IMG/VR virus record: IMGVR_UViG_2585427752_000010
Length of the DNA stretch: 19,561 bases
Source: a virus
Taxonomy: Duplodnaviria > Heunggongvirae > Uroviricota > Caudoviricetes
Direction: 5' to 3' (one strand)
Positions within the stretch are counted from its first letter, which is position 1. Every line of letters starts with the position of its first letter. Under the pieces are notes generated by a model. That model saw only the letters and a program-made list of their open reading frames with translations. It was not told the origin of the DNA and did no database searches. Positions 1,261-18,875 of the stretch are shown in pieces. Made by a program: the position numbers and the translations under genes.

Positions 1261-1355
1261 CTGAATAGATTGAGCCTAGCTCGACGGGGCGAAAAGCGGG
1301 AAGCCTTACCGCCTGGCTCAATCACAAAATAAGGCGCAGCGTAAAAGGTGACGCA

Positions 1356-2321: not shown

Positions 2322-2337
2322 AGTAGCTAACTATTCA

Positions 2338-2366
2338 GGCACAGTATCATTACTGCGCCTTTTTAT
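2338..2366 (+). terminator. putative intrinsic terminator after the 321-aa gene
   Basis: GGCACAG / CTGCGCC imperfect stem (6 of 7 pairs), 8-nt loop, followed by TTTTTATT. Confidence 0.4.
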
Positions 2367-2386
2367 TGTTCATATATGTACAGATA

Positions 2387-2435
2387 CTTCCTCCCGTAAC
2401 GAAGCAACAACTATCGCTAAGAGGTTACGGGAAGC
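2387..2435 (+). promoter_or_regulatory. inverted repeat overlapping the alpA ribosome-binding site
   Basis: CTTCCTCCCGTAAC (2387-2400) and GTTACGGGAAG (2425-2435) are near-perfect inverted complements separated by ~24 nt; the right arm ends immediately before the alpA ATG. Confidence 0.3.
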
Positions 2436-2639
2436 ATGAACACCGACACTATTCCTACAAAAGGCTATATCAGACGCTTCCGCCTGGCTGAATTGCTGGG
2501 CGTTAGTGTATCCACCATCGACCGTAAAGTAAGAAACGGTTCACTACCACGTCCGGTAAAGCTGGGAGAAAAAATAACTGCGTTTGATGCGGTTGAGATT
2601 CACAACTGGCTGGCAGAACGCCGCGGGAAGGTGGCCTGA
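2436..2639 (+). CDS. alpA: AlpA-family helix-turn-helix regulator / excisionase-like protein
   Basis: 67 aa; HTH segment LAELLGVSVSTIDRKVRNGSLPRPVKLG...W matches the AlpA/prophage regulatory protein pattern; stop overlaps the next start (TGATG). Confidence 0.8.
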   Translation: MNTDTIPTKGYIRRFRLAELLGVSVSTIDRKVRNGSLPRPVKLGEKITAFDAVEIHNWLAERRGKVA

Positions 2640-3070
2640 TGGAAAAGAAAAACCGCCCATTACAGGCGGCTAATTCAGATATTCGCGTATCTGATGTTAC
2701 GCCCCTGACAAAATCCCTTCAAGCACCAAAGCGCACACCGAAAAAGCATCGTGCCAGAGTCTATATGCTGCGTACTGGTATAGAGGGATGGACAGAAAAT
2801 GACATTCTTCGCTACTGCCGTCTGTCTTCTGGTCGTAACTATGCAACAGAGTTAGAACGCCAGCTTGGAATCACTCTGGAGCGTATCGACGAAAAGAATC
2901 CTGATGGTATCGGAACACACCTTCGCTACCGTTTCTCCTGCCGTGGTGATGTTCTGAAAGTGATCACTCATATTAACCATCTTGCGAACATAAATGATCA
3001 CAACGGACTTTCTCAGCAGGAAATTGCCGACATTCTGAAACTCTACCCGGACGCGTTTAACGCCGCCTAA
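2639..3070 (+). CDS. hypothetical protein
   Basis: 143-aa ORF translationally coupled to alpA; basic N-terminus; no recognisable motif. Confidence 0.7.
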   Translation: MEKKNRPLQAANSDIRVSDVTPLTKSLQAPKRTPKKHRARVYMLRTGIEGWTENDILRYCRLSSGRNYATELERQLGITLERIDEKNPDGIGTHLRYRFSCRGDVLKVITHINHLANINDHNGLSQQEIADILKLYPDAFNAA

Positions 3071-3082
3071 CGGAGACTGAAA

Positions 3083-3916
3083 ATGAACATCGAAAAAAGC
3101 AGATTAATTTCTGAGGCTGCCCCTCATCTGAACGCCTCTCTGAGCACAATTAACGGTAATGAATTTGCCGCAATTGTCCCGGTTATTCCTGGTCATATCG
3201 GTGGGCGTGAAACCAATATTGTTAGCGCAAAAGCGTTACACAAAGCGTTGGGCGTGGGAAAAGACTTCTCTACATGGATCACTGATCGCATCTCTGAATA
3301 TGACTTCACCATTGGGCACGATTACTCAGTCCATAAAACAATTTCCCCAAATTTGGGGAAAAGCCCGAATGGCGCGGCTTACAGCAAGATAAAGCACTCT
3401 GGCAGACCCGGCAAAGACTATCTGTTAAGTGTCGGAATGGCGAAAGAACTGGCAATGATCGAACGCAATGATCAGGGTCGCGCTATCCGCCGTTATTTCA
3501 TCCAGTGCGAGGAAGAATTACAGCGTAGCGTGCCTGAAATCGCCGCCCGCTATCGTCGCCAGCTAAAAGCCCGTCTCAGTGCCGCAAACAACTTTAAGCC
3601 AATGTGCGATGCGCTGAATATGGCCCGTGCCGAGATGGGTAAAACGACGCAGCAACACCACTACACAAACGAGAGCAATATGATTTCTCGTATCGTTCTT
3701 GGTGGGCTAACTGCTAAGCAGTGGGCGCGGATAAATGGCTATTCTGGCGAACCTCGCGACCATATGAACGCAGAACAGCTTGAGCACCTCTCATATCTCG
3801 AAAGCACCAATATCACGTTAATTGATATGGGCATGGAATATGAGCAGCGCAAAGGAGACCTCCCCCGCCTGTCGCAACGCTGGCTCGCCAAGCGTCTGGA
3901 GGTGGTCAATGTCTAA
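3083..3916 (+). CDS. phage antirepressor-like protein (Ant/KilAC-type, tentative)
   Basis: 277 aa; GGAG RBS 7 nt upstream; segment AKALHKALGVGKDFSTWITDRI resembles antirepressor N-terminal domains; assignment is from recall, not a search. Confidence 0.6.
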   Translation: MNIEKSRLISEAAPHLNASLSTINGNEFAAIVPVIPGHIGGRETNIVSAKALHKALGVGKDFSTWITDRISEYDFTIGHDYSVHKTISPNLGKSPNGAAYSKIKHSGRPGKDYLLSVGMAKELAMIERNDQGRAIRRYFIQCEEELQRSVPEIAARYRRQLKARLSAANNFKPMCDALNMARAEMGKTTQQHHYTNESNMISRIVLGGLTAKQWARINGYSGEPRDHMNAEQLEHLSYLESTNITLIDMGMEYEQRKGDLPRLSQRWLAKRLEVVNV

Positions 3917-4091
3917 GCCAACAGGAACACCACAACCACAAAAACGCTACAAAGATGCCCACGGAGCACTCGTTACTGTCGAAAGCGTGTCTCACAACCG
4001 AGTGACGTTTTATCGCGACGGGTATCAATCGCCATGCGTACAACCGCTGGCGCGTTTCATGAAGGAGTTCGCGGAGGTTAACAAATGCTAA
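3909..4091 (+). CDS. small hypothetical protein (60 aa)
   Basis: ATG at 3909 overlaps the stop of the upstream gene; sequence MSKPTGTPQPQKRYKDAHGALVTVESVSHNRVTFYRDGYQSPCVQP... looks protein-like. The ORF track's 3822 start lies inside the upstream gene and was not used. Confidence 0.5.
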   Translation: MSKPTGTPQPQKRYKDAHGALVTVESVSHNRVTFYRDGYQSPCVQPLARFMKEFAEVNKC

Positions 4092-4522
4092 CCGTCCAGA
4101 AGAAGACATTTTCACTGGCTGGTATGTCGCCAAAATCCAGCAATATGACGGCAAAGTCAGGCATTAATACAGCAGATACAAGCAAAGTTTATCATTTGCT
4201 GGTGGTCGGAACGGATGCCTTAACCATATCAGAAATCTCGGGCGATGATATTAGCATTGAGAAGGTCAGCGGCTGCGCCAGAGAATTTCTGGTCGTAGAT
4301 GACCTGTTCTGCTCGCGTAGTGACTCCACAAAAACATTCGTCCACGCGCGTGACGTTAACGAAATGAGCGCGATGTACTGTGCTTCTGGTTCTTCCAATA
4401 GTGAGTTTTCGGAGTCCATAAAAAAGAGCTTGCCGTTATGCGGCAACACGGTTTATGGTTATAAGGCACCTCATAAAACGGGTGCCGGGTTTCGCAGCCC
4501 GGAAATGTACGAGGCGACACAT

Positions 4523-4544
4523 GACGCGCCGAGCGTCTTTTTTT
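4523..4544 (+). terminator. putative intrinsic terminator inside the ambiguous 4085-4746 region
   Basis: GACGC-gccga-GCGTC hairpin followed by TTTTTTT. Confidence 0.35.
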
Positions 4545-4746
4545 GTGCCGTTAGCCAGACTCACACTTTTTTCAGTGATGTGGTTATAATCCGCGTCGCT
4601 TGCAAAATTATGGTGGGCTGGACAGGGCAGCCGAAAGGCTGGCCGGTTTCCTTGTACGCCGGTACTGCGAACTCTGTTCAGTCCACCACCAGCGAGTTTC
4701 GCAGCTCCGGTGGTGGGAAGAATTCCCAGTACAAGGAGGCTGCCAC

Positions 4747-4941
4747 ATGCTGGCTACTACCCCTACCCAAAAACCGCAATTTATCTGGATTATCGCCGCA
4801 GTTCGCCGCGATTGCCCGACAATTACCGCCAAAATTCATCATATTGCTGCCGAGTCTGAACGCGATGCTCGCCGTTCTCTGGTGCGCGATCACGTCTGCT
4901 TTTTTGCTGGTCGTATCCGCATGGAGGTGGCACATGATTAA
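4747..4941 (+). CDS. small hypothetical protein (64 aa)
   Basis: ATG at 4747 preceded by AGGAGG with 7-nt spacing; product MLATTPTQKPQFIWIIAAVRRD... is charged and protein-like; stop overlaps the next start. Confidence 0.5.
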   Translation: MLATTPTQKPQFIWIIAAVRRDCPTITAKIHHIAAESERDARRSLVRDHVCFFAGRIRMEVAHD

Positions 4942-5152
4942 AACCTACGATGTGCATATGGATCCCCTCGAACGCACAAGCCAGATCATCACACTGACAG
5001 AAGTGATTAATGACATTCTGGTGAGCAACTCTCCCTCACGAGACGAAAAACTGAAGGCGTTACTCGCGATATTGGATCTCGCCGTTCGTGACGTTCATTT
5101 CCTGCTGGAAGGTGGACAAATGCCATGCAAAACGGGGGCAACCAATGAATAA
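4934..5152 (+). CDS. small hypothetical protein (72 aa)
   Basis: ATG at 4934 preceded by GGAGG; product MIKTYDVHMDPLERTSQIITLTEV... is protein-like; it is the in-frame 3' portion of the long 4085..5152 ORF. Confidence 0.55.
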   Translation: MIKTYDVHMDPLERTSQIITLTEVINDILVSNSPSRDEKLKALLAILDLAVRDVHFLLEGGQMPCKTGATNE

Positions 5153-5339
5153 CTCAATTAATGCCCCTCGCCTTACGTCCGCACTTCAATTAATCGAGCA
5201 AGCAGCGGCTGTCCTGGTTGCTGTCAGTCTTTCGGCTGAAGAAATGGACGCTGCTGATGTCGTGGATGCGATTAAAGCGTGCTCATCTTTGGTTAACGAT
5301 GCCCGTGCAGAGCTGGTAATTCTTGGTGGTGAAAAATGA
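5145..5339 (+). CDS. small hypothetical protein (64 aa)
   Basis: ATG at 5145 in frame within the 5088 ORF; overlaps the upstream stop; downstream stop overlaps the next start (ATGA). Confidence 0.5.
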   Translation: MNNSINAPRLTSALQLIEQAAAVLVAVSLSAEEMDAADVVDAIKACSSLVNDARAELVILGGEK

Positions 5340-5599
5340 ATATCAACTTAATTTATCGTCATCCGTGTGAGCTGGAAATTGAATCATTGCTGGGGCGCGA
5401 AGAGCCATATCCAGACACATTCACTCCCGCAGATTGCGCGACTGAACGGCTTACCAGAGCGCGCACAGGTCTGGTTCATGTGATGAATGAGATTGTTCCC
5501 TCGGTGGGAGGGGAACAGGCGACAGTAATCAATAGCTGGCTACAAAAAGTTACCTCCCTGATAGATATCGGTTTAATCGATGTGGAGAGTGCGAAATGA
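5336..5599 (+). CDS. small hypothetical protein (87 aa)
   Basis: ORF with ATGA start/stop overlap on both sides, indicating translational coupling in an operon. Confidence 0.65.
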   Translation: MNINLIYRHPCELEIESLLGREEPYPDTFTPADCATERLTRARTGLVHVMNEIVPSVGGEQATVINSWLQKVTSLIDIGLIDVESAK

Positions 5600-5817
5600 C
5601 CAACATCCAGCTCATTGAAGCGCAATGTCGCATCGAACAGGTTCAGACTGTTTTAGGGTTCTGGCTTGAAGGGGCCAGCCCCAGCAACAGAGACAAGTTA
5701 ATGATTGGCGCGGTTATGTCACTGCTCAATGGCGTACCAGAAGCTATTCAGGAAGCGGACGAATTGTTGGGCAAATATGAGTTACAGAATCATTCAGGCG
5801 AGGCGAAACATGAATAA
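5596..5817 (+). CDS. small hypothetical protein (73 aa)
   Basis: ORF coupled to its neighbours by overlapping stop/start codons. Confidence 0.65.
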   Translation: MTNIQLIEAQCRIEQVQTVLGFWLEGASPSNRDKLMIGAVMSLLNGVPEAIQEADELLGKYELQNHSGEAKHE

Positions 5818-6412
5818 TTTCTTAACTTTCCATGCAGAAGCAACGCCTGACGGCGTAAACATCATGTACCGCAGCAACGATGGCATGACAGAACGCGTTG
5901 AGGCCATCTCATATATTGATGCCGTAAATCGTCTGGATGCCGGGGATTATGACGATAAACCAGATGAAGGTATGTCAATACATCTCGCTATTGCCGATGG
6001 CGGCAACCAGGGATATTTCGATTACACATCACAGCATAACGTCATTATGTGGAGATGGCTGATCGCAACAGTATTCATGCTGGAAATGAGAGAGGAAAAC
6101 GGCACTGTCAGCATCATTGATGATACTGGCAATCCTTCCGAAGTGGCTGTTTATTCCAACGGCATCGTCGCCATGCCGCTGTATCCAGTAGCAGAGCGCC
6201 TCGCTATGGCAAACAACATTGAGGGCGCGATGATAGAACGTTTTGGCATCGAGTCTGGCACAGAACGCGCCATCATTTTCTACAGAGCCATGATGGATGT
6301 GGAACAAGGAGCACTGACTCCATTTGGGCGTGAAACGCTTGCTGAACTTCACAACAGCTTTATAGCTGAACTGAATGAAAACGGCATGCCAGCGGAACCA
6401 GTGACGCACTGA
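5810..6412 (+). CDS. hypothetical protein (200 aa)
   Basis: ATG at 5810 overlaps the upstream stop; acidic product MNNFLTFHAEATPDGVNIMY...; the ORF track's earlier 5705 start would overlap the upstream gene extensively. Confidence 0.7.
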   Translation: MNNFLTFHAEATPDGVNIMYRSNDGMTERVEAISYIDAVNRLDAGDYDDKPDEGMSIHLAIADGGNQGYFDYTSQHNVIMWRWLIATVFMLEMREENGTVSIIDDTGNPSEVAVYSNGIVAMPLYPVAERLAMANNIEGAMIERFGIESGTERAIIFYRAMMDVEQGALTPFGRETLAELHNSFIAELNENGMPAEPVTH

Positions 6413-6422
6413 GGATGGAGCC

Positions 6423-6764
6423 ATGATTACTAAAAATTTCCGACTGAATGCGCTGGCAAATAAGTATGCGTCGGCACTGTATAACCACATTACCTCCACC
6501 AGCGGCGGGGACTATTTCATGGTTGATGCGGACGGCGAGGCCGTCCGTGTGGAAATCGTCAATGGAGTAAAAGGCGTTCGCAGCCTGATCGATAGCTACA
6601 CACTGGCAGCCATGAAAGTGTTCTACCCGCAGTGGGAAACCGTGGGGATCGAGCTTCTTGAACGTTGCGTCACTAAGGACGGATTGACTGACGTCGGGCG
6701 TGAGATATGGCAAAGCATGGTTAATGACATGGGCGCAACTGTAGCGGGAGGTTCTCATGCGTGA
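6423..6764 (+). CDS. hypothetical protein (113 aa)
   Basis: ATG at 6423 with GAGGA RBS; stop overlaps the next start. Confidence 0.7.
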   Translation: MITKNFRLNALANKYASALYNHITSTSGGDYFMVDADGEAVRVEIVNGVKGVRSLIDSYTLAAMKVFYPQWETVGIELLERCVTKDGLTDVGREIWQSMVNDMGATVAGGSHA

Positions 6765-7128
6765 AAATGCAGAAATGGCGCTTAGCTCCGCAATCGGAGA
6801 GCAGGTGGCAAAGATTGCTGGTGCTGTGTGGATTCATAACCTTCATTCTACTGGTGAAGAGAAAATGGCAATTCAGACGCCAGAGGGACGCACCATTACT
6901 ACATCTCTGAAGCCGTCAGATGTTTGTGATCTGATTTGCGCATTCATGTACCCAGCAATGAGGACTGTCCACGGCGATAAGTGGAAACTTGCGACAACCG
7001 CTGAATTTGATATGTGGCTAAACAATGATGGCATGCTGACTGATTACGGAATAACCAAGTGGCAGATGCTGGTTAGCCATATCGCAAACGCTATAGACCA
7101 CGTGGGGTACGGTGATGCGAAACATTGA
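6757..7128 (+). CDS. hypothetical protein (123 aa)
   Basis: ATG at 6757 with GGAGG RBS; 3' end overlaps the primase start. Confidence 0.7.
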   Translation: MRENAEMALSSAIGEQVAKIAGAVWIHNLHSTGEEKMAIQTPEGRTITTSLKPSDVCDLICAFMYPAMRTVHGDKWKLATTAEFDMWLNNDGMLTDYGITKWQMLVSHIANAIDHVGYGDAKH

Positions 7129-9466
7129 TCTTATCCGTCAGGTTATCAGTGCGTCTGAAAACAACTGGCCTCATGTGCTGGGCTGCCTGAACATAAATGT
7201 CCCTGACTCTCCGCGCCGTCATGCTCCCTGCCCTGCATGTGGGGGCAAAGATCGATTCCGGTTCGATGACAACGGGCGCGGTAGCTTCATCTGTAATCAG
7301 TGCGGCGCTGGTGATGGGCTGGATTTAATTAAACGCGTAAATAACTGCGACACAACAGAGGCGGCGCTTCTTGCCGCTGATGTTCTGGGTATTGATTACC
7401 GGACAACGGAAACACCAGAAGCCACCAGCCAGAAACGGGAACAACTGGAAACCGAGCGCCAGCGACGCGAACAGGAGCGCCTGAAAAGGGCAGAGAAGGA
7501 CGAACAACAAAGACGGGATACGTTTTCCCGTCAGTTTGATGACATGCGCAGAAAGGCTGTAAACGGCAAATCTGATTATCTGGTTGCGAAAGGGGTAGGT
7601 GATTTTACATTCCCCGTGTTGCCCGATGGATCTCTGTTGCTGGCGCTGGTGGATAAATCCGGCGCAGTCACAGCAGCACAGACTATTACCTCACATGGTG
7701 AAAAAAGACTCCTGACAGGTTCGGCAAAGCGGGGGGCATATCACGCCATAAACGCACAGAAACGACCTCACAGCATCATAATTGCTGAGGGGGTGGCTAC
7801 CGCCCTGTCGTGCCATTTAATTCGCCCTGACGCAATGACAGTGGCAGCAATCGACGCTGGCAACCTGTTGCCAGTAGCGGAAGTCATGCGCAGAACATAT
7901 CCGCAGGCACAAATAATCATTGCTGCAGATAACGATCACCAGCAAGGAGACTCAGAAAGTGGAGGGATCAACACGGGGAAAGATGCCGCAGAGAGGGCCG
8001 CTATTTCCGTAGCTGGCAGGGTGTCTCTGCCACCGACTGACTATAAAGCCGACTGGAACGACTATCACCAACAACACGGGCTGGCGGCAGCCACAGCAGC
8101 ATTTAAAGATTCGATGTACCAGCCACGGGGGAAAGGGGCGCAGGTGAAAAATCACAAACAGTCAGTCGGGGCGCTGAATGAGATCAGTTCTGGCGAGGTG
8201 TTAAGCGATGATGAAATTGCTGTCCTCGAAGAAATCAACCGGACGTTTACGCATGTCACCATCGGCGGGAAACACAAGGTGGGGTCGCTAAAGCCTTCTC
8301 AAACCGGCGGTGTATCGCACGTTTTCGAGGATTTATCACAATTTCAGCATTATTTTCATCATAAACCGAGAGTCGCCAGAAAGCTGGCGGGATCGGCGTG
8401 GCTGTCATGGAGTGGGAAGAACTACAAGCCAGGAGGCGTAGGATTTTATCCAGTACCAGACAAATGCCCTGACGATGTTTTTAATCTGTATGAGGGGCTG
8501 GCACTGGAACCAATTGAAGGAGATTGCACGGTATACCTTAATCACCTGTTGCAGGTTGTCTGTGCCGGTAATGAAGAGGCATACCAATATCTTATCCAGT
8601 GGATGGCGCACATTATCCAAAAGCCTGATGAAAAACCGTCCGTGGCAATCGTGATGAAATCTGTCCCGGGCACAGGGAAAGGCACAACGGTTAAACCGCT
8701 GCTGCAAATACTGGGGCAGTACGCCGCCCACATTAACGGGGCGGGACATATTTCAGGGCGCTTCAATTCAATACTTGCTAACAAGCTACTGGTATTTGCT
8801 GACGAAGTGACGATCCACAAGCCGTCTGAAGCTGACAGACTTAAAGCGATTATTAGCGAACCGACGTTTAACCTTGAGCGCAAGGGAATTGATGCTGAAC
8901 CAATGCCGAATTTTGCCCGGTTGATATTTGCCAGTAACAGCACACAGGTATTACAGGCAGGGATAAGAGAGCGTCGCTATCTCGTGCTTGAGCCATCTCC
9001 TGAAAAAGCACAGAGCCGGGAGTATTTTGATCGGCTGTACAGTTGGCTTAATGATGGCGGTGCCGCAAAGTTGCTTTGGCATCTTAAAGGGGTGGATCTC
9101 TCAGGTTTTGACCCTCAACGAGCGCCACAGACCGATGCCTTACGTGAAGAAATCTTGCTGGGGCTGTCTGGCGTTGAATTGTTTCTTTATGGCGAGCTAA
9201 TCAATGAACCTCCGTTTAATGGCGAAGTCCGTTTGTTTGCAAAGGATATGGTTAGTCGGTTTGTAGCGTGGTCGCTTGAGCGTGGGGAAAAGCTTAAAGA
9301 ACCAGCTGCCAGATCACTACTGGGTAAATCACTTGCACAAATGGGGCTGGTGAAGCATGGAAGACCAGACCGAGGGAATGGCGTGTTCTACGAACTACCA
9401 GAGGTCGGAGTTCTACAGGCTGCGTTTGCCCGTCTGATCGGTATGGGGGGTTATGATGTTTTTTAA
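7112..9466 (+). CDS. P4-alpha-like bifunctional primase-helicase
   Basis: 784 aa; N-terminal zinc ribbon CPACGG...CNQCG; TOPRIM-like motifs IIIAEGVATA and IIAADNDH; C-terminal P-loop NTPase region with Walker A-like PGTGKGTT and Walker B-like LLVFADEV. Start may be GTG 7112 or ATG 7115. Confidence 0.9.
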   Translation: MMRNIDLIRQVISASENNWPHVLGCLNINVPDSPRRHAPCPACGGKDRFRFDDNGRGSFICNQCGAGDGLDLIKRVNNCDTTEAALLAADVLGIDYRTTETPEATSQKREQLETERQRREQERLKRAEKDEQQRRDTFSRQFDDMRRKAVNGKSDYLVAKGVGDFTFPVLPDGSLLLALVDKSGAVTAAQTITSHGEKRLLTGSAKRGAYHAINAQKRPHSIIIAEGVATALSCHLIRPDAMTVAAIDAGNLLPVAEVMRRTYPQAQIIIAADNDHQQGDSESGGINTGKDAAERAAISVAGRVSLPPTDYKADWNDYHQQHGLAAATAAFKDSMYQPRGKGAQVKNHKQSVGALNEISSGEVLSDDEIAVLEEINRTFTHVTIGGKHKVGSLKPSQTGGVSHVFEDLSQFQHYFHHKPRVARKLAGSAWLSWSGKNYKPGGVGFYPVPDKCPDDVFNLYEGLALEPIEGDCTVYLNHLLQVVCAGNEEAYQYLIQWMAHIIQKPDEKPSVAIVMKSVPGTGKGTTVKPLLQILGQYAAHINGAGHISGRFNSILANKLLVFADEVTIHKPSEADRLKAIISEPTFNLERKGIDAEPMPNFARLIFASNSTQVLQAGIRERRYLVLEPSPEKAQSREYFDRLYSWLNDGGAAKLLWHLKGVDLSGFDPQRAPQTDALREEILLGLSGVELFLYGELINEPPFNGEVRLFAKDMVSRFVAWSLERGEKLKEPAARSLLGKSLAQMGLVKHGRPDRGNGVFYELPEVGVLQAAFARLIGMGGYDVF

Positions 9467-9495
9467 TATAGTCTTTTTACAAGAAGATCGTTTTT

Positions 9496-9600
9496 ACCTG
9501 TACCACCTATACCACTTTGCTAATTCAGCATTAAAAACAATGTGTTATAGTGGTACAGGTCAATATCTTACCTATACCAGACCTGTACCACCTATACCAT
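9496..9600. repeat. iteron cluster 1 (putative origin-type repeats) just downstream of the primase
   Basis: ACCTGTACCACCTATACCA at 9496-9514 and 9581-9599, inverted partial copy GTGGTACAGGT at 9550-9560, and partial copy CCTATACCAG at 9571-9580. Confidence 0.6.
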
Positions 9601-9642
9601 TAACAAACGCATTTCTTCTGGCTGGCTGAGAGGGAACAACCA

Positions 9643-9873
9643 ATGATGAGCACACCATTTTACAAAGTGCGCCAGTTAGCTTCTTCCTCTGGCTGGCAGC
9701 TACGGTTTGAGGGGCGTTCAGACTGGCTACCCATTGCGGCATGGGCGAATGTTGAAATGTGTATTGACGGCGATACCGTTGAAATCATTATTCCCTGCGT
9801 GGCAAGTCGGGACGGCTGTATAGAGCCAACAGATATGGCAGCAGAAATCAGAGAGGTAAAACATGAGCAATAA
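9643..9873 (+). CDS. hypothetical protein (76 aa)
   Basis: ATG at 9643 preceded by GAGAGGGAA; stop overlaps the next gene's start. Confidence 0.6.
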   Translation: MMSTPFYKVRQLASSSGWQLRFEGRSDWLPIAAWANVEMCIDGDTVEIIIPCVASRDGCIEPTDMAAEIREVKHEQ

Positions 9874-10600
9874 CTATTGCATACCGCAGGGAATGACCAG
9901 AACGGAGCGCGAAGAATTAAAAAGTTTCGCTACACAGTGCGGGAATGCTGGCGACATCCAAAGTCTGGAACGCACTTTAATTATGATTGCGCACTGGATG
10001 CGTCAGGGGCAAAGGGTTTCATTTACTGAATATGCCAGCCAGTGGACAGAGGCACAGCGCGAACGGAGCGACGGTAATCACTCAACACCCGAAATGGCGA
10101 AGCAATGGCCTTTCAGTGGTAAACGCTGTATCAGTCCCGGTGGTTCAGATTATTACCCTGCTGGTGTGGGAGATGAGCCATGTTGTGACGAGACTGAAAT
10201 CCGCCACGCAGTGACAGTAATTACCGCTGAATACCCACAATTTAACCTTGACGGACTGGCGCTCCACAACCGGAATGCGGACTGGGAAAACCCGCTTGAT
10301 AACCCGTCATTTATCGTATCGGCGAAAAGCTGCCTGAGATGGATCAGAGACAACGGGATGAGTAATGCCCAGATTGAGAGCTTCCCGCAGGATAACCCCA
10401 CATCTGACACGTTGAAGCATGAAGTGGAGCGATATAACCAGATAAACCACCAGCACAGTGATCACCCGCACTATATCCCCAACGGAGCATTTATTGCGGC
10501 GATGGTGGCAAGCGGCTACAAGGTTAAGCCAGCGGGAAGAATGAACGCATTTTTCAATATTTCAAAAAAGGGATTATGTGCTGCTATGGGTAAAAATTAA
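9863..10600 (+). CDS. hypothetical protein (245 aa)
   Basis: ATG at 9863 preceded by GAGAGG; Cys- and His-containing product with no motif recognisable by eye. Confidence 0.7.
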   Translation: MSNNYCIPQGMTRTEREELKSFATQCGNAGDIQSLERTLIMIAHWMRQGQRVSFTEYASQWTEAQRERSDGNHSTPEMAKQWPFSGKRCISPGGSDYYPAGVGDEPCCDETEIRHAVTVITAEYPQFNLDGLALHNRNADWENPLDNPSFIVSAKSCLRWIRDNGMSNAQIESFPQDNPTSDTLKHEVERYNQINHQHSDHPHYIPNGAFIAAMVASGYKVKPAGRMNAFFNISKKGLCAAMGKN

Positions 10601-10605
10601 ATAAA

Positions 10606-10709
10606 TGGTACAGGTCTGTACAGGTGGGGAGAGGTCATTTTTACCCACCTGTACCACCTGCAGGCCGCGTCACACAAGGGTTTGTGACATGGTGGTACAG
10701 GTGGTACAG
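10606..10709. repeat. iteron cluster 2 (same GGTACAGG/CCTGTACC family)
   Basis: TGGTACAGGTCTGTACAGGTGGG (10606-10628), inverted CCCACCTGTACCACCTG (10644-10660), TGGTGGTACAGGTGGTACAGC (10689-10709), plus a GTCACA-N8-TGTGAC inverted repeat (10669-10688). Confidence 0.6.
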
Positions 10710-11074
10710 CAAAAACAGCGATTTTCTTTATAAGGTATGTTTTGCTCATCTGGCAGACGGAGGTATTCGCTGCGGTTTGGCACATAGCCCAGAACAGCAA
10801 AGAGTTTTACGAGACTTTTGTAAAATCCAGTGTACAAGGGCGTGACGTTTTTGAAGGAGAGACCTACGAAATTTTCGTAGTTCAAAAAATAGCCTCTGAG
10901 ATGTTGTTATGCCTGTTCAGCAAACCATCCGCATAGCTGATCGCGAATCAAATTACCAATGGAGCCAGAAGCAAGGGCAGAACTGGAAAGCGCCTGCCGT
11001 GAAGAGTAATGCGACATCGTAAATATAGTTTTTAGAGTCCATAAAAAAACTGTCAAAACCTGACATACAGAACG

Positions 11075-11108
11075 ATGCCACCAGCTACTGAGCGGTGGCA
11101 TTTTTTTG
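11075..11108 (+). terminator. rho-independent terminator
   Basis: ATGCCACC / GGTGGCAT perfect 8-bp stem with 11-nt loop, followed by TTTTTTT. Confidence 0.65.
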
Positions 11109-11169
11109 TGCTATTTGTTTCATATTTTGCAATTACGATGATGAATATTGCGATTTGTGAAACTATAAT

Positions 11170-11189
11170 AACTGTTGTTTTATACAGTT
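11170..11189 (+). promoter_or_regulatory. LexA-box-like site (CTGT-N8-ACAG) between a TATAAT element and the operon's first RBS
   Basis: AACTGTTGTTTTATACAGTT: CTGT at 11172-11175, 8-nt AT-rich spacer, ACAG at 11184-11187; a consensus -10 TATAAT lies at 11164-11169 and the RBS AAGGGGG at 11192-11198. Confidence 0.4.
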
Positions 11190-11202
11190 CTAAGGGGGCG
11201 TT

Positions 11203-11364
11203 ATGGCTATTTCAGTAAAGCCGGTATTGATAAGTGAGAAGCAAATGGAAGCGATAAAGAAAATTCAGGAAGAGCAGCGTAAAAAATCAGGAATTGGAGT
11301 AGCGCCAACTCTGCATGAAATTGCTCGAGGGTTAATAGATAAGGCGCTGGCAGGCTGTATGTGA
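11203..11364 (+). CDS. small DNA-binding-like protein (possible ribbon-helix-helix), 53 aa
   Basis: Not in the ORF track (below its size cutoff). ATG at 11203 with strong RBS TAAGGGGGCG; product MAISVKPVLISEKQMEAIKKIQEEQRKKSGIGVAPTLHEIARGLIDKALAGCM has a strand-helix-helix-like pattern. Confidence 0.45.
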   Translation: MAISVKPVLISEKQMEAIKKIQEEQRKKSGIGVAPTLHEIARGLIDKALAGCM

Positions 11365-11380
11365 AAATGGATGGCATCGC

Positions 11381-11842
11381 ATGGAACTAAAATTTATTGA
11401 TAACCCTGTGCGATTACAGGCCTTTCTTAACGATCCTGGCAATACCGAAAATATTGTTGAGCCGGGGCACACGTACTACATCAAGCCTGATGCGGTATAT
11501 CTCGGCATCTACGAAGGATTGGTGCTGGCTGGCGTTCATGAAGTGCGTAACTTCTGGCATAGCATTGTTGAATGCCATGCGGTGTACGACCCCGGATTCC
11601 GTGGTGAATATGCACTGCAAGGGCATCGATTATTCTGCAAATGGCTTCTCGAAAACTCACCATTCCTTAACAGCATCACTATGGTTCCTGACACCACGAA
11701 ATACGGACGGGCAATTATCCGTTTGCTTGGCGCTACCCGTGTTGGTCACCTTGATGATGCTTATATCAGATGTGGTAAACCCGTCGGCGTAACGCTTTAT
11801 CAGTTAACTCGGCAACAATATAAGGAATTCAGCGAATGTTAA
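11381..11842 (+). CDS. hypothetical protein (153 aa), second gene of the operon
   Basis: ORF starting 17 nt after the small gene; stop overlaps the next start (ATGTTAA). Confidence 0.75.
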   Translation: MELKFIDNPVRLQAFLNDPGNTENIVEPGHTYYIKPDAVYLGIYEGLVLAGVHEVRNFWHSIVECHAVYDPGFRGEYALQGHRLFCKWLLENSPFLNSITMVPDTTKYGRAIIRLLGATRVGHLDDAYIRCGKPVGVTLYQLTRQQYKEFSEC

Positions 11843-12513
11843 TTACCCATATAGCTCATAAACATCTCAATCGTGCCGTATACGAAAAAGGCGGTGATGG
11901 TGGTGCCTCTAAAGCTCAGGCGAAGGCCCAGCAGCAGGCAATTGATTTGCAGCGCGAGCAGTGGAATACGGTGATGAATAATCTCAAGCCGTATGCAGAA
12001 GTCGGATTGCCTGCTTTACAACAACTACAAGGACTGATGACTCTGGAAGGGCAGAATAAAGCCGCGAATGATTTCTTTGGTTCTGGTTTATATAAAACAC
12101 AGGCAGATCAGGCCCGTTATCAGAACCTTGTCTCAGCAGAAGCTACCGGGGGGCTTGGCTCAACAGCTACCAGTAACCAGTTATCTTCCATTGCGCCCAT
12201 GCTTTATAACAATTGGCTTAGTGGGCAAATGCAAAATTATGGAAACCTGCTAAATGTCGGGATGAATGCGGCATCAGGACAGGCAACGGCAGGGCAAAAC
12301 TACGCCAATAATACCGGACAACTCTTGCAGGGGCTTGGCGCTATTCGTGCAGGTCAGGCGCAGCAGCCATCCAGTCTTGCGCGTGGTATTGGTGGGGCAG
12401 CATCAGGCGCTTTAGCGGGTGCGCAACTTGGTTCCGTTGTTCCTGGAATAGGTACTGCGGCAGGCGCTATTGGTGGTGGGCTTATTGGTCTTGTTGGGGG
12501 GCTTGGATTCTAA
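11836..12513 (+). CDS. Gly/Ala/Gln-rich protein with C-terminal glycine-zipper hydrophobic segment (225 aa)
   Basis: AAGGAA RBS; low-complexity Q/A/G/N-rich body; C-terminus GIGGAASGALAGAQLGSVVPGIGTAAGAIGGGLIGLVGGLGF has repeated GxxxG spacing typical of membrane-inserting glycine zippers. Confidence 0.75.
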   Translation: MLITHIAHKHLNRAVYEKGGDGGASKAQAKAQQQAIDLQREQWNTVMNNLKPYAEVGLPALQQLQGLMTLEGQNKAANDFFGSGLYKTQADQARYQNLVSAEATGGLGSTATSNQLSSIAPMLYNNWLSGQMQNYGNLLNVGMNAASGQATAGQNYANNTGQLLQGLGAIRAGQAQQPSSLARGIGGAASGALAGAQLGSVVPGIGTAAGAIGGGLIGLVGGLGF

Positions 12514-13826
12514 TGGCGACATGGCAACTTGGCGGGCTGCCTAGCATGGCACCGCAAAATGATAATGCTCCTCGTTCTTCCGTTCCTCAGCCTGTGCAGT
12601 ATCAGCAGCAGCCAAACGTAGGTTTAATGGCGCTACAGGGGCTAAGAGGCGTTGCTGAGATTAATCAGCAGGCGCAAATTTCCCAGCAGCTAAAAGAATA
12701 TCAGGCACGGTTGGGTAGTGCGGTAGCTAATAATGATCGTGTTGGCGTGCAGAAGTTAATGGCCCAGTATCCCCAGTTTATGGCTGATTCTCAAAAACAG
12801 ATGGGATTCATTGATGCTGAGCAAAATCGGCAGACCGCTGACGCTGCCATGAATCTGCGTCTTGCGTCACAAACTGGAGATCCACTGACCATGCAGAAGG
12901 CCATTCAGCAGGCAAATCCAGTATTACAGCGATTTGGTCTTCCTGCTGAAGAGGTTTATCAGTCTTGGCAGAATGACCCACAGGAATTCAACAGAATCAC
13001 TGACCTCATCCACCTCCATGCTGATCCAAATAGTTACTTTAGTGTTCAAGAGAAGCAGCAAGGGCAGAGTATTGCACAGCAGAACGCAGATACATCTGCA
13101 TATAATGCTCAGGTTAATGCGGAACAGGGTAATCGGCGTCTCGATATGGAGCAGTTCAAAGCCCTATCCGATAACCAGCTACGCACGAGAGAAATGGTTC
13201 TGAAAGCACGACTTGGACGTGCTCAAAATGACATCGAGAGAGACAAGCTCAATGCTGAACTGAGCAAGGTACAGCAGGCGAAAGTGGAGAAGATGAACGA
13301 TAAAATTAATACTGTTGTAGGTAACATCGACTCCTTGAACTCTGCGCTTGAAGTGGGTCATGAACTGGCGGGAATTGTAGGGAAACATCCTTCGGCCGTT
13401 ACCCGTTCGCAGAACTATAACCCCCTGACGCTGGGGTTTGGATTCCTTCCTGATGTAGCAGAAGACACACGAAGCCTACGCGCCAAAGCTGATGAATACA
13501 ACCTAAAGGTTATTCTGCCTAGCCTCAAAGGGACTTTTGGCTCTAACCCAACCGAAGGGGAAAGGGCTGCCCTTATGCAATCTCAAAATGGCATTAAGTC
13601 AGCAACCAGCAATGAGGCATTTTTGCGAGAGTTGAATAAAGCGCAGGACGTAATTATTCGAATGCAGAAACGACAGATTGCCGGGCTCGGTATTCCTGTA
13701 ACCAAATCTAAGGACGAAGAAACTGATACCAAAATGCTGTTGCAGGATCCTTCTCTGGTTAAGGATTATGTGACCGCACATGGCTATCTGCCGGAAAGTT
13801 ACTATCAGGCAAAACTTAAGGGATAG
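12513..13826 (+). CDS. Gln-rich, probably coiled-coil protein (437 aa)
   Basis: ATG overlaps the upstream stop (TAATG); Q-rich N-terminal half and charged, heptad-like central region. Confidence 0.8.
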   Translation: MATWQLGGLPSMAPQNDNAPRSSVPQPVQYQQQPNVGLMALQGLRGVAEINQQAQISQQLKEYQARLGSAVANNDRVGVQKLMAQYPQFMADSQKQMGFIDAEQNRQTADAAMNLRLASQTGDPLTMQKAIQQANPVLQRFGLPAEEVYQSWQNDPQEFNRITDLIHLHADPNSYFSVQEKQQGQSIAQQNADTSAYNAQVNAEQGNRRLDMEQFKALSDNQLRTREMVLKARLGRAQNDIERDKLNAELSKVQQAKVEKMNDKINTVVGNIDSLNSALEVGHELAGIVGKHPSAVTRSQNYNPLTLGFGFLPDVAEDTRSLRAKADEYNLKVILPSLKGTFGSNPTEGERAALMQSQNGIKSATSNEAFLRELNKAQDVIIRMQKRQIAGLGIPVTKSKDEETDTKMLLQDPSLVKDYVTAHGYLPESYYQAKLKG

Positions 13827-13828
13827 CA

Positions 13829-16549
13829 ATGATGGCACAACTGACAGAAAAACAGAAAGCCTATTCCCGTCATCTCGATGAAAAATATGGTTTCCCATCA
13901 GGGACGATGGAAACATTAGTTGGCAATGAATCTAGTGGTAACGGAAGTGCCGAGTCACCGAAAGGAGCTAGAGGATTTGCTCAACTGATGCCCTCAGTAA
14001 TGAGTGATGCTGGTTATCGTGGAACAGATCCGCGCTCACTGCCATTTGAAAAGCAAATGGATATCGCAGCAAACCATCTCAATAAAGGAATGAAGCGATT
14101 TGGTGATATAGGTATGGCATTGGCTGGGTATAATTCTGGCTATGCTCGTATTAATGCCGTAAGAAACGGTAAATCTACACTGCCAGATGAAACGGCTAAT
14201 TACGTAAGTAAATTTGCAGATGCCGGAATAATCCCTGATGACAGTGAAATCTTGCAGTTTGCACAAACCAGTCAACATCGCAATCTTCAGCAGCCTGACT
14301 ACTCAGAGCTTGATAAAGAAATCTCTCAGGTGGGAGATATTTCTGCATGGGAAGCAAAACGTCAGCAATTTAAGAACATAGAAGCAGGACTACCAACAGC
14401 CAGTTCATGGGAGCAGAAAAGAGCTCAGTTTCTCGCCGATGAAAATGCCGGGGAACCGCAGCAGCAAGTAGCCAAGTCTAACCTTAATCCTGAGATGGAA
14501 TATCTTTCGCCAGGACTGAAAGCTGCGCCAGAGCAGATGGCCAGAGGGATTGCTAATATACCGTTTGATGTAATGGACGCAGGCGTGGGGGTAGTCAATG
14601 CGGCGCAATCAGCCGGAGCATGGGCAGCTCAGAAGCTTGGTGTGGGTGATGGCACATACACGCCCATATCACCTGTCTTTCGCCCAGTAGACCAACCTAC
14701 AGATCCATACGCGCAGGCTGGTGAGCAGCTAGCACCTTACCTTATTACAGGATTAGGTGCAGGAAAGGCAGCTACCGCAGCTTCTTCAGTTGCCAACGCT
14801 CCACGTGCTGAACGTGCGGCCACAAAGGTGGCTAGTATGTTGGCAGAAAACCTGCCAGGTACATTGGTGAACGCCCAAAAGAACGGGCAGATCAGCCCAG
14901 AAGACCTAGCAAAAGAGACAGGTATTGGCCTAGCAGGATCGCTAGGAGCACGCGCTTTAATAAAGAGCGGACAGACAGCCAGTGACGTAATGCGAGATGT
15001 ATTGCGGAGTAATACAAATCAATCAGGCCATGTGTTAGGGGCAGCAAATACTCTGGAAACCGCCAATGATGTATCGAAAGCAGCGCGTTCTGCCGTAGGC
15101 CGAGAGCATATCGCATCGCAGGCATCAAACGTCAGAGATGATGTCGCTAAGGCGGCGAAAATTACTGGTATTAATATCAACACCCTGACGCCTGGAATGC
15201 GCTCAGGTAGTCGTGGAATTGCCCAAGCAGAAGGTGTTCTGGCATCAACTCCTGGGAATGTTCAGGATGCTCACCTTACGGCCTTCAATGAAATATCCTC
15301 AAAGTTGAATAAGCAGTTGTCTGATTTCGGTGCTGAGTCTGGAAGCGCATCAGAAAAAAGCGCAGCAATTAAAGAGCGCATCATCGCGAGCCTCAGTGAT
15401 ATGAAAACAGCAGAGAATATGGCATGGGCAGAACTGCGAAGCACGATGCCACGCGAAAGGATGAAAATGAGTAATGGGATGGCTGTCGTCCAAGCAGAAA
15501 AAGCAGCCAATGTTCCACTCAGCCCGGAGATGAAACAGTTTCAGGCTGCCAACAACCAAGGTGGCGGCATAACCTTCGACGGGATGAAGGCATGGCGTGC
15601 TAAGTTTGCTGATGCTGAACAAGCAAACACCCGGGCAGGTAAGGCCAATGCCGCCCGGATTGCCGGAGAAATGCGCAGAGCTATCACTGATGACATGCGC
15701 ATCATGGCTGAAAAAGGAAACTTCCTCACAGAATGGCAGAAAGCTAACGATCTCTCTAAAAGTTACATTATCGCCAAACAAAATGCCGAATCTGTTTTTG
15801 GTCGAGATCTCGCATCAGACGCTATGGTAAGAAAAGGTGCCGATACGCTTAAGGCATCCGCAAACACTGGAACGGGAGCTTTTCACCGTCTTATCTCCGC
15901 GCTGCCGGAAGCAGAACGCCAACCAGCAATAGCATCTATTCTTCAGCATGCTGTGGCGCAGGGAGAGAAGGGAGGAATCGGTGAAGAATCTGGTATCCAG
16001 TATTTTGCCAAGCTCATGACCCAGCAGAATGTAAACGCCATCAGTCGTCATGCGCCAGATCTCGGTAGAATGATGAAAGAGTTCGGTGTACTCGCTAAAG
16101 CCAGCACCAGACCGCAGCGATACGTAGAGCGCACGGGAAGAACAACTGAGGCTCTCAAAACGCTCGATTCAGGCCTTCCAAAGATCGTCGGCGTGATTAT
16201 GAACGGAGTTCAACAGTCAGGTGCGATCGCTGGAGGCTTTGGCGGTGGTGTAATTGGTTCGATTAGTGGTTTGGTTGCTGGTGGCGCGCTGAGAAATACT
16301 GTGGCTAAGATTGGGGCGACAAGAAGTGGTAGATATGCGATAGAGAAAGCCGTTCAGGAAGCTACAAAAGCAGTGCGCGCAGGGGCATCACCAGCAGCGA
16401 TCGCCGCAGCAGAGAAACGATTTTCGGCCAATAAAATTGCCATGAAAGCAATTCGTGATGCCGTTGGGGCTGAAGAATTCGTGAAACTGACAAGGGCCGG
16501 GATTGTAGCTACCCTCAGTGGCATGAAAGATGTTAGCGAATGGGAATAG
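13829..16549 (+). CDS. large protein with N-terminal lytic transglycosylase (SLT) domain and C-terminal Gly-rich hydrophobic segment (906 aa)
   Basis: N-terminal NESSGNGSAESPKGARGFAQLMP fits the SLT catalytic ES...GA.G..QLMP pattern and ALAGYNSGYARI fits the AYN.G motif; long Ala-rich body; near the C-terminus GGFGGGVIGSISGLVAGGAL. Confidence 0.85.
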   Translation: MMAQLTEKQKAYSRHLDEKYGFPSGTMETLVGNESSGNGSAESPKGARGFAQLMPSVMSDAGYRGTDPRSLPFEKQMDIAANHLNKGMKRFGDIGMALAGYNSGYARINAVRNGKSTLPDETANYVSKFADAGIIPDDSEILQFAQTSQHRNLQQPDYSELDKEISQVGDISAWEAKRQQFKNIEAGLPTASSWEQKRAQFLADENAGEPQQQVAKSNLNPEMEYLSPGLKAAPEQMARGIANIPFDVMDAGVGVVNAAQSAGAWAAQKLGVGDGTYTPISPVFRPVDQPTDPYAQAGEQLAPYLITGLGAGKAATAASSVANAPRAERAATKVASMLAENLPGTLVNAQKNGQISPEDLAKETGIGLAGSLGARALIKSGQTASDVMRDVLRSNTNQSGHVLGAANTLETANDVSKAARSAVGREHIASQASNVRDDVAKAAKITGININTLTPGMRSGSRGIAQAEGVLASTPGNVQDAHLTAFNEISSKLNKQLSDFGAESGSASEKSAAIKERIIASLSDMKTAENMAWAELRSTMPRERMKMSNGMAVVQAEKAANVPLSPEMKQFQAANNQGGGITFDGMKAWRAKFADAEQANTRAGKANAARIAGEMRRAITDDMRIMAEKGNFLTEWQKANDLSKSYIIAKQNAESVFGRDLASDAMVRKGADTLKASANTGTGAFHRLISALPEAERQPAIASILQHAVAQGEKGGIGEESGIQYFAKLMTQQNVNAISRHAPDLGRMMKEFGVLAKASTRPQRYVERTGRTTEALKTLDSGLPKIVGVIMNGVQQSGAIAGGFGGGVIGSISGLVAGGALRNTVAKIGATRSGRYAIEKAVQEATKAVRAGASPAAIAAAEKRFSANKIAMKAIRDAVGAEEFVKLTRAGIVATLSGMKDVSEWE

Positions 16550-16699
16550 ACGCTCTAACTAACAAAACCATAATAGCCAAGGACGGCATACTGATATTGA
16601 GCCAACTATCAAAATTCCATATCACATTACGGGCCTGTGGCTTACATTCGCTTACAGTGATGATAATTTATAACCACGCAATTCTTAGGTGAGATTATC

Positions 16700-17398
16700 A
16701 TGATTAAAAATCTTCTTTTAATATTATCCCTGTCATTATTGGCTGGATGCGTACAAAAACCGTTAGTAACGGTCAATGCTTTATCTTCCGGGCAATCTGT
16801 CGGTAAGAAGTTCTTGATCATCCCCGCAAGCCAAGAACTTTGGAACACCAAACAGATTGAATACACTCAAATAGCTACGGTAGTAGCCGCCAGTTTATCA
16901 AGCCAAGGATATACACAAGTTAAAGATGAAAAATTGGCTGACCAGGTAATTCTCTTGAACTTTTTGAGAAGCGGGGCCATTTCAAATACTCGTAATGTAA
17001 CCATCCCAATATACGGGCAAACTGGTGTGAGCTCAGCAACAACGTACGGAAACTCGAACACCACGTTCAATAGTTATGGTGGTGGCTACGGTACAGCTAA
17101 TATCACTGGAACGGCAACAACAGTTTATACGCCTACTTATGGAATTACTGGCGCGTATAACACAACTGTGACGGACACGTTCTACGGCGCAGGGGTGATA
17201 CTCCAGTCGTTTGATGCCAAGGCTTATCTCAATAATAGGCAGATTAATATGTTATGGAAAGTTGGTAGCTCAGTCGTCTCGCAACAGTCTGATGGAATTG
17301 CTGATTACAAGGGGTTGGCGAGAATAGCCGCTAGCTATGCCGGGAAAAATACAGAAGGTGATATAACTTTTAATGTTGACCCTAAAGCACCAAATTAA
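16700..17398 (+). CDS. lipoprotein, Thr/Gly/Tyr-rich (232 aa)
   Basis: Signal peptide MIKNLLLILSLSLLAGC with lipobox LAGC; AGGTGA RBS; mature part rich in T/G/Y/N repeats; lower GC than the upstream operon. Confidence 0.8.
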   Translation: MIKNLLLILSLSLLAGCVQKPLVTVNALSSGQSVGKKFLIIPASQELWNTKQIEYTQIATVVAASLSSQGYTQVKDEKLADQVILLNFLRSGAISNTRNVTIPIYGQTGVSSATTYGNSNTTFNSYGGGYGTANITGTATTVYTPTYGITGAYNTTVTDTFYGAGVILQSFDAKAYLNNRQINMLWKVGSSVVSQQSDGIADYKGLARIAASYAGKNTEGDITFNVDPKAPN

Positions 17399-17405
17399 CT
17401 AATAA

Positions 17406-17427
17406 GCCCGGTACGCCGGGCATTTAT
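17406..17427 (+). terminator. weak terminator-like hairpin after the lipoprotein gene
   Basis: GCCCGG-tacg-CCGGGC perfect 6-bp stem followed by a T-poor tail (ATTTAT). Confidence 0.35.
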
Positions 17428-17562
17428 GCCCCTATTATTCATGAATCGCTTTTTCTAGAAGGTATGCGACAAACGTTAAGTGACATTGCCTACACATTCG
17501 GGGCGGGATTTCAAATCCGCTCCCAGTTGATGGGGTCGTTACAGTACGCGCATATCCGCTTT

Positions 17563-17633
17563 ATGTGAAACAGGAAGATTTTTCTGATATCACTGCCACA
17601 GCAAAACACCAATTTCGTGACCAGTACGCGCAC
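17563..17633. repeat. copy A of a ~70-bp repeat family (copies B at 17838-17867 and C at 19473-19543)
   Basis: A and C align over ~70 bp (ATGTGA.A..GGA.G.TTTTTC.GA.ATCACT ... CAATTTC..GA.CA.TACGCGC) with small indels; B is a shortened copy (CTGATAT-TTTGCGACAAGTACGCGCGCG); a fourth core CAGTACGCGC lies at 17542-17551. Confidence 0.6.
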
Positions 17634-17895
17634 GATGGAGGGGAGTACCATAAAACTGTTCTCTACATAAGTCAGAGTGGTGGTGATGTGTTGATTATCG
17701 GCGTATATGCGCACAGGACGCGCTATGACGATGTTTTATGCGGGTACACCAATCACATGTATCTGGTGTGATAAATCGCGTTACATGACCTCTCATGTTG
17801 TGCTGGTGGTTATCACGACGTTCTGAATCTGGCCTTTGCCTGATATTTTGCGACAAGTACGCGCGCGTAGCATCGACAGCATACACATTGGATAT

Positions 17896-18753: not shown

Positions 18754-18875
18754 TGTTGGTTCAGAGCTGGGCTGTGTTGGTTCAAAATGAGTTGATGTTG
18801 GTTCAATATTTCAGAAAAAACACAATAAAAACAACGATCTTTACAAATTGAACCAACTGAACCAACTGAACCAAC
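18754..18875. repeat. phased iteron array: 3 direct TGTTGGTTCA repeats at 21-bp spacing plus 3 tandem inverted TGAACCAAC repeats
   Basis: TGTTGGTTCA at 18754, 18775 and 18796; AT-rich spacer; TGAACCAAC x3 in tandem at 18849-18875, ending 17 nt before a TATAAT (18893-18898) upstream of the PerC-like gene. Confidence 0.65.

Follow-up and report, generated by a model that had tools for sequence, protein, structure and literature searches.

A 19,561-nt stretch of DNA (IMG/VR record IMGVR_UViG_2585427752_000010, referred to here as the window) carries, directly after a primase gene, two clusters of one short repeat that bracket a pair of genes, and the question raised by this locus is what the clusters do and which protein reads them. 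A preliminary description had likened them to the ori/crr pair of P4, and had also considered that they might mark the boundaries of a recombining cassette.

The window encodes, in this order, an integrase, an AlpA-type regulator, AntA, Ash, a primase-helicase of 784 aa, orf76, orf245, homologues of the P22 proteins gp14, gp7, gp20 and gp16, and PerC. The int-alpA-...-primase order and the one-directional transcription are features of the island, which has no capsid, tail or terminase genes of its own. Judged from its gene content and sequence identity, the element appears to be an EcCIMP1-like phage-inducible chromosomal island (PICI) of E. coli. In blastn comparisons it is 96% identical to EcCIMP1 over positions 2629-8136 and 98% identical over 10801-17876; these two stretches account for most of the island, and EcCIMP1 has been mobilised experimentally. 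Both elements have alpA, antA, ash, the N-terminal half of the primase, the P22-like gp14/gp7/gp20/gp16 set and perC. EcCIMP1 differs in its integrase and attachment site, in the DUF927 type of its helicase half, in its TTGGTTCA iterons and in having neither orf76 nor orf245. Induction and transfer of EcCIMP1, itself a PICI, by the P22-like phage Kapi1 have been demonstrated (PMC11773190; Pick, Stadel and Raivio 2025), in a paper that makes no mention of an origin or of iterons (PMC11773190). The region of interest is near-identical in 130 of 5426 complete E. coli genomes, and in strain 2016C-3878 the island is located between yicC and dinD.

Two further parts of the island deserve comment. 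The integrase and a 321-aa ORF (1356-2321), both within window positions 1-2628, have no counterpart in EcCIMP1; the ORF has only a weak PADLOC match (PDC-S31, E 0.002), and the site of the window island, yicC-dinD, contrasts with tRNA-Thr. At the other end, positions 11381-16549 encode the homologues of P22 gp14 (DUF2824), gp7 and gp20 and an SLT-domain protein resembling gp16. These P22-like gp proteins are termed 'DNA transfer' proteins of unknown role in the EcCIMP1 paper (PMC11773190), and a satellite that carries its own ejection proteins merits study.

The repeat itself is strongly over-represented. Exact copies of GGTACAGG occur six times in the window against 0.31 expected, and the GGTAYAGG form nine times against 0.56 expected; none of the 200 dinucleotide-preserving shuffles from which the expected counts were derived contained at least six copies of the former, and none at least nine of the latter. 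All nine GGTAYAGG copies are confined to positions 9497-9598 and 10607-10701, bearing out the initial claim of at least seven copies in two clusters and in both orientations, the coordinates of which proved accurate. In homologous loci the motif is kept beside the homologous primases. If one mismatch is tolerated, TGTACAGG at 10617 and GGTACAGC at 10703 join the count, which brings cluster 1 to six sites and cluster 2 to five. The repeat unit is the 9-bp word ACCTRTACC, often arranged in tandem with 9-bp spacing (repeat families D1 and D2) and present in both orientations, and the outermost tandem pairs form a 24-nt inverted repeat of 88% complementarity (9492-9515 with 10692-10715).

Cluster 1 (9496-9599), the candidate origin proper by virtue of its repeats, position, column conservation and spacing, begins 30 bp past the primase stop (9466). 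Its plus strand carries CCTRTACC at 9497, 9506, 9571, 9582 and 9591 and one inverted GGTACAGG at 9552. Read in the sense of the primase, it consists of a tandem CCTGTACCA+CCTATACCA, a 38-bp spacer, an inverted TGGTACAGG, 11 bp, CCTATACCA, and a second CCTGTACCA+CCTATACCA pair, with start-to-start spacings of 9/46/19/11/9. The spacer (9514-9551, 38 bp, ~28% G+C) is a candidate DNA-unwinding element; the local G+C content dips down to 0.40 at this point, and a counterpart of the spacer is found in P4, Methylomonas and other relatives.

Cluster 2 (10606-10711), a candidate second initiator-binding region on account of its repeats and of its conservation as a unit, is a single array of ~105 bp without duplication. 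Sites of the GGTACAGG type lie on its plus strand at 10607, 10617 (TGTACAGG), 10694 and 10703 (GGTACAGC), and CCTGTACC at 10648 is followed by a degenerate ACCTGCAGG, so that the layout reads as two inverted sites, 23 bp, one direct and one degenerate site, 29 bp, and two inverted sites. It has no AT-rich spacer, and neither cluster contains a recognisable sigma-70-like promoter or a terminator. An Rfam search returned only two sub-threshold miRNA matches, which appeared because the iterons are palindromic. A conserved hairpin in cluster 2 was considered and rejected: only the Methylomonas version folds better than its shuffles (z -4.2), those of Raoultella and Buttiauxella do no better than shuffled sequence, and the window version has a z of +0.65.

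How these arrays compare with characterised origins is the next point. PICIs have their origin directly 3' to the gene for replication (Fillol-Salom et al. 2018, PMC6092414), and it is defined by short iterons in two sets, one on each side of an AT-rich stretch (PMC6092414, Fig. 2 legend); for EcCICFT073, the origin together with Pri/Rep was assayed by the maintenance of a conditional plasmid (PMC6092414). Cluster 1 resembles these origins (SaPI ori; EcCICFT073 pri-rep-ori) both in its position 3' of the primase and in its iterons on either side of an AT-rich stretch, and the window differs from them in that, 1 kb beyond cluster 1 and past two genes, it has a second array. Neither the iteron word ACCTRTACC nor this primase subtype is known to have been described.

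The likeness to P4 extends to geometry. The annotated type-1 repeats of P4 ori, read in the sense of alpha, comprise two direct copies, 35 nt of AT-rich sequence, one inverted copy and three direct copies, with start-to-start spacings of 10/43/22/11/10; cluster 1 shares this six-iteron arrangement (2 + 1 inverted + 3) and its 5:1 polarity on the initiator-sense strand. The P4 alpha protein and the primase of the window have in common a Zn-ribbon, a Toprim domain, a DUF5906 helicase and a C-terminal winged helix (predicted in the case of the window), and in both systems the iterons recur, in mixed orientation, in a second array some distance away. In P4, replication needs this second cluster, crr, in cis. 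The differences are that the P4 type I octamer is TGTTCACC rather than ACCTRTACC, that crr lies directly after alpha with ori 4.7 kb off whereas in the window it is the ori-like cluster that follows the primase, that cluster 2 is a single array and crr a pair of 120-bp direct repeats, and that the window island has no sid, psu or delta. The analogy with ori and crr drawn in the preliminary description stands in part, on comparative evidence: the position of cluster 1, its P4 ori geometry, the tracking of the motif with the C-terminal half of the primase and a block swap against EcCIMP1 (the last two are taken up below) favour it, and its second half falls short in that cluster 2 does not show the crr structure with its 120-bp duplication.

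Conservation in other genera is concentrated in the iterons. The six sites of cluster 1 are found in register in Buttiauxella, Pantoea, Raoultella, a decayed enterobacterial remnant and Methylomonas, the primase being 64% identical in Buttiauxella and 51% in Methylomonas (helicase C-terminal part). In a six-way alignment from E. coli to Methylomonas, counted from the stop codon up to the last iteron, 32 of the 48 iteron-core columns are invariant (67%) against 14 of the 83 remaining columns (17%; Fisher p 1.4e-8 over six loci, an approximate value because the aligned sequences are related). In the E. coli variant H53 (98% identity), all substitutions in cluster 1 fall outside the iterons, mostly in the AT-rich spacer. 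Raoultella, Buttiauxella and Methylomonas all keep cluster 2 as a unit, with invariant TGGTACAG-TGG and CCGCG, and the layout of the whole block is maintained in Buttiauxella and Raoultella at 62-76% protein identity. The decayed Pantoea island retains cluster 1 only. In Methylomonas, which has neither orf76 nor orf245, the counterparts of the two clusters directly adjoin each other and no gene separates them; a 116-aa ORF placed over these iterons by a gene caller is regarded as spurious. Methylobacter also carries the iterons in a gene-free stretch beside a homologous helicase, without orf76 or orf245.

The presumed initiator is the primase-helicase (7112-9466, plus strand), in which Pfam recognises a Zn-ribbon primase, a Toprim and a DUF5906 SF3 helicase domain and for which a structural model gives a C-terminal winged helix; PHROG assigns it as a DNA primase. 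Pfam detected neither Pox_D5 nor D5_N. Over its first 335 aa the protein shows 33% identity to P4 alpha (E 4e-41), and BLASTP found no similarity to alpha in the helicase and C-terminal halves. A sequence search of the PDB with the primase recovered only the core of the NrS-1 primase-helicase and not the P4 origin-binding domain. The predicted winged helix at residues 653-784 (9068-9463, plus strand) is the candidate origin-binding domain; the fold match is generic, with 1ka8 ranking 55th.

Related loci allow the two ends of this protein to be separated, since 24 of 27 share with the window only primase residues 1-341/352 (in one locus, up to 499). Within 500 bp after the stop codon, GGTAYAG occurs one to seven times in the nine loci with a homologous helicase/C-terminal half, against zero to one time in the 20 loci with N-terminal homology only or with another helicase type (Mann-Whitney p 3.7e-7; here, as elsewhere, p-values are approximate, the compared loci being few and partly related). 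Loci without homology in the helicase half have an iteron word of their own at the same place: TGAACCAA, GAGACAAC, CGGGTTA, GTAGGGA or CGGTCAC. When the iteron class is compared with the last 120 aa of the primase, mean identity is 0.74 within a class and 0.43 between classes, and no such correlation is seen with the first 300 aa (0.65 within, 0.62 between). The position immediately 3' of the primase also recurs in all 19 of the intact related primases examined.

Among primases of the DUF927 type (L004-L025), the last ~40 residues read ...GRGYQRKSPRI... in association with TGAACCAA and ...GRGYQGRVRED... with GAGACAAC, and the helicase segments are up to 97% identical across both iteron classes. 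The wing segment QRKSPRI/QGRVRED, set against the iteron word, is a candidate recognition code. In V. vulnificus pMP1 (L041, 2181-2476) and C. freundii pIsolateG_E (L042, 3000-3333), small plasmids in which a DUF5906 primase-helicase is the sole recognisable replication gene, this gene is followed by the plasmid's own iterons, in two groups.

The comparison with EcCIMP1 (L036) shows an exchange of the same block. Nothing aligns by blastn between 8136 and 10801, and therefore the replaced replication module (8137-10800, plus strand) runs from about primase residue 342 to 85 bp past cluster 2, where homology resumes; it comprises primase residues ~342-784, cluster 1, orf76, orf245 and cluster 2. 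Its left breakpoint, at about residue 342, coincides with the domain boundary beyond which most of the other relatives are no longer similar. The GGTAYAGG cluster is absent from EcCIMP1, which instead has TTGGTTCA iterons arranged three and three around an AT-rich spacer directly after its DUF927 primase, and a second, identical TTGGTTCA cluster in inverted orientation 8.4 kb away, upstream of perC. That the iteron columns are kept, that the motif follows the helicase/C-terminal half, that a winged helix is modelled there and that the block is swapped together all point to the C-terminal part of the primase as the reader of the iterons.

The window also contains an orphan cluster of the EcCIMP1 word. 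Of its seven TTGGTTCA matches (0.89 expected), six lie at 18756-18874, upstream of perC, as three spaced and three tandem inverted copies with an AT-rich spacer. Compared with EcCIMP1 the cores of this cluster are invariant and its spacers have diverged. It belongs to the EcCIMP1/DUF927 replicon type, the primase half of which is missing here, and is separate from the GGTACAGG system, though it is relevant to the two-cluster design. It may have been left behind when the module was swapped, it may be acted on by the primase of a co-resident island, or it may be something else.

The two bracketed genes, orf76 (9643-9873, 76 aa) and orf245 (9863-10600, 245 aa), both on the plus strand, encode RefSeq hypothetical proteins with no match in Pfam, PHROG, NCBIfam or PADLOC. 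In Buttiauxella, Pantoea, Raoultella and Xenorhabdus, too, an orf76 homologue lies after cluster 1. The orf245 product belongs to an orphan family of Enterobacterales whose members are always encoded just after a replication gene (AAA_25, DUF5906 or DUF927), with an SSB after the homologue in two of the four loci examined; a search with its structural model (pLDDT 87.7) gave no significant neighbour. A homologue of 41% identity in locus L039 is encoded between seven and six copies of ACCGACAA, beside a DUF927 primase, and more generally orf245 homologues of 41-44% identity occur amid different iterons that match the type of the neighbouring primase. Judging from the genomic contexts in Methylomonas and L039, orf76 and orf245 are not the readers of the iterons, and the bracketing recurs with other iteron words. 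The bracketing of two genes, which had been singled out as unusual, is less so because the orf245 homologue of L039, in another replicon type, is likewise bracketed by different iterons. Neither is it universal, because the second cluster of Xenorhabdus separates orf73 from the orf245 homologue and does not follow that homologue.

Two local features of these genes were also observed. A TTCTCTGGC(N)G motif, kept across genera, lies ~20-35 nt upstream of the starts of orf76/orf245 homologues and once within orf76 (window 9613-9626 and 9684-9697; L038 4008-4022 and 4463-4477; L039 4472-4480). In L029 (E. coli 723_010814_2_1) a 13-bp tandem duplication (CAGAGAGGTAAAA) relative to window positions 9850-9862, at the orf76/orf245 overlap, alters how orf76 ends as well as the distance to the start of orf245.

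The distance between clusters varies widely among relatives. Many enterobacterial loci have 12 iteron copies in two adjacent arrays, and one cluster only is found after the primase in L004, L005, L019 and L023. Where two clusters occur, they are adjacent in Methylomonas and many relatives, 1 kb apart here, 4.7 kb apart in P4 and 8.4 kb apart in EcCIMP1, so that the 1-kb split of the window is one point on a range. As far as these comparisons go, a pair of clusters is the general design and their distance is variable, and the two genes between the origin halves would be the only unusual trait of the element. It is conceivable, though we consider it unlikely, that the origin consists of two inverted iteron units with free spacing, that the orf245 family has come to lie between such units more than once, beside unrelated helicase types and unrelated iteron words, and that orf245 and orf76 form an origin-embedded replication accessory or a replication-coupled switch; if this were true, the expression or action of orf245 would depend on looping of the initiator between the arrays.

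The reading that we favour, and hold to be quite probable, is that the clusters together make up, in two parts, the origin used for vegetative replication by an EcCIMP1-like PICI and are read by the C-terminal winged helix of the primase. We infer binding by the primase, melting at the AT-rich spacer and cooperation between the clusters. Weighing against this reading are the failure to detect sequence similarity between the primase C-terminal domain and the P4 origin-binding domain, the generic fold match, the lack in cluster 2 of an AT-rich spacer and of a crr-like duplication, and the arrangement seen in Xenorhabdus. The winged helix of the primase-helicase would recognise ACCTRTACC arrays in both clusters. 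At cluster 1, the putative origin proper, the initiator would bind iterons on either side of the 38-bp AT-rich spacer, melt it, load itself as an SF3 helicase and prime synthesis, as P4 alpha does at P4 ori. Cluster 2, opposite in overall orientation, would be an auxiliary array bound by the same protein and would work with cluster 1 in a P4 crr-like way, probably through looping or pairing. Located inside this split origin, orf76 and orf245 would be read through from the primase operon and may be passengers or accessory genes of the replication module.

A different role for cluster 2 is suggested by the plasmids P1 (incC-repA-incA) and F (incB-repE-incC), in which iteron arrays bracket a gene, one array being the origin and the other modulating it. 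The window shares with these plasmids the two arrays of repeats, here putatively initiator-binding, that flank a coding region; it differs in that the gene bracketed in P1 and F is the initiator itself, of the Rep family and dependent on host DnaA/DnaB, whereas here the presumed initiator is encoded upstream and is a self-contained primase-helicase. Following this precedent, both clusters would bind the primase and cluster 2 would exert negative copy-number control by handcuffing or titration, as P1 incA and F incC do, a reading that is possible although on balance we doubt it. Such a role would fit the lack of an AT-rich unwinding spacer in cluster 2, the facing of the arrays as an inverted repeat, which suits pairing, and the presence of one cluster only in L004, L005, L019, L023 and the decayed Pantoea island. 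It fits less well with the conservation of cluster 2 along with cluster 1 from E. coli to Methylomonas, and with P4, the closest functional analogue by type of initiator, which requires its second cluster in cis. Sequence alone cannot separate the crr-like role from copy control.

Readings that leave out replication fare worse. Were the repeats operators of a dedicated transcription factor that regulates orf76-orf245, possibly the orf245 product, which has a C-terminal helix and beta-hairpin, they would not be expected beside the homologous helicases of Methylomonas and Methylobacter, which lack both genes, nor would orf245 homologues of 41-44% identity be surrounded by other iterons matching the adjacent primase; the tracking of the iteron word with the primase C-terminus and the lack of a sigma-70-like promoter in either cluster also make this very improbable. 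The idea of a recombining cassette, here an invertible or mobile two-gene unit with the clusters as its inverted-repeat ends, draws on the 24-nt, 88% inverted repeat at the outer edges and on the adjacent clusters of Methylomonas, which look as if a cassette had been inserted in enterobacteria. It was not upheld: the whole 1401-bp region is colinear in 130 of the 130 E. coli genomes that carry the primase 3' end, with none inverted or empty, the only recombinase is the island integrase at 1-1260, 8 kb away, Buttiauxella and Raoultella, with proteins of 62-76% identity, share the layout, and repeats of the same kind occur without any cassette, so that we attach hardly any credence to it. No more plausible is a packaging (pac) signal for the terminase of a P22-like helper. 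In its favour, the island has no terminase of its own and its relative EcCIMP1 is packaged by the P22-like Kapi1 (PMC11773190); against it, EcCIMP1 lacks the GGTAYAGG cluster, and the motif varies along with the primase C-terminus and not along with the virion module, in which the two islands are 98% identical.

If the clusters are indeed a primase-read origin, EcCIMP1-like satellites, which are present in ~2-3% of complete E. coli genomes (130/5426 for this replicon type), gain a concrete candidate origin and a candidate code for the recognition of DNA by the initiator. The shared geometry links PICI origins to P4 ori, and the accepted view of how such origins work is unchanged. The replication module, made up of the helicase half, the predicted winged helix and the iterons, swaps as a cassette within an otherwise near-identical island, and this exchange bears on incompatibility and on cross-talk between co-resident satellites.
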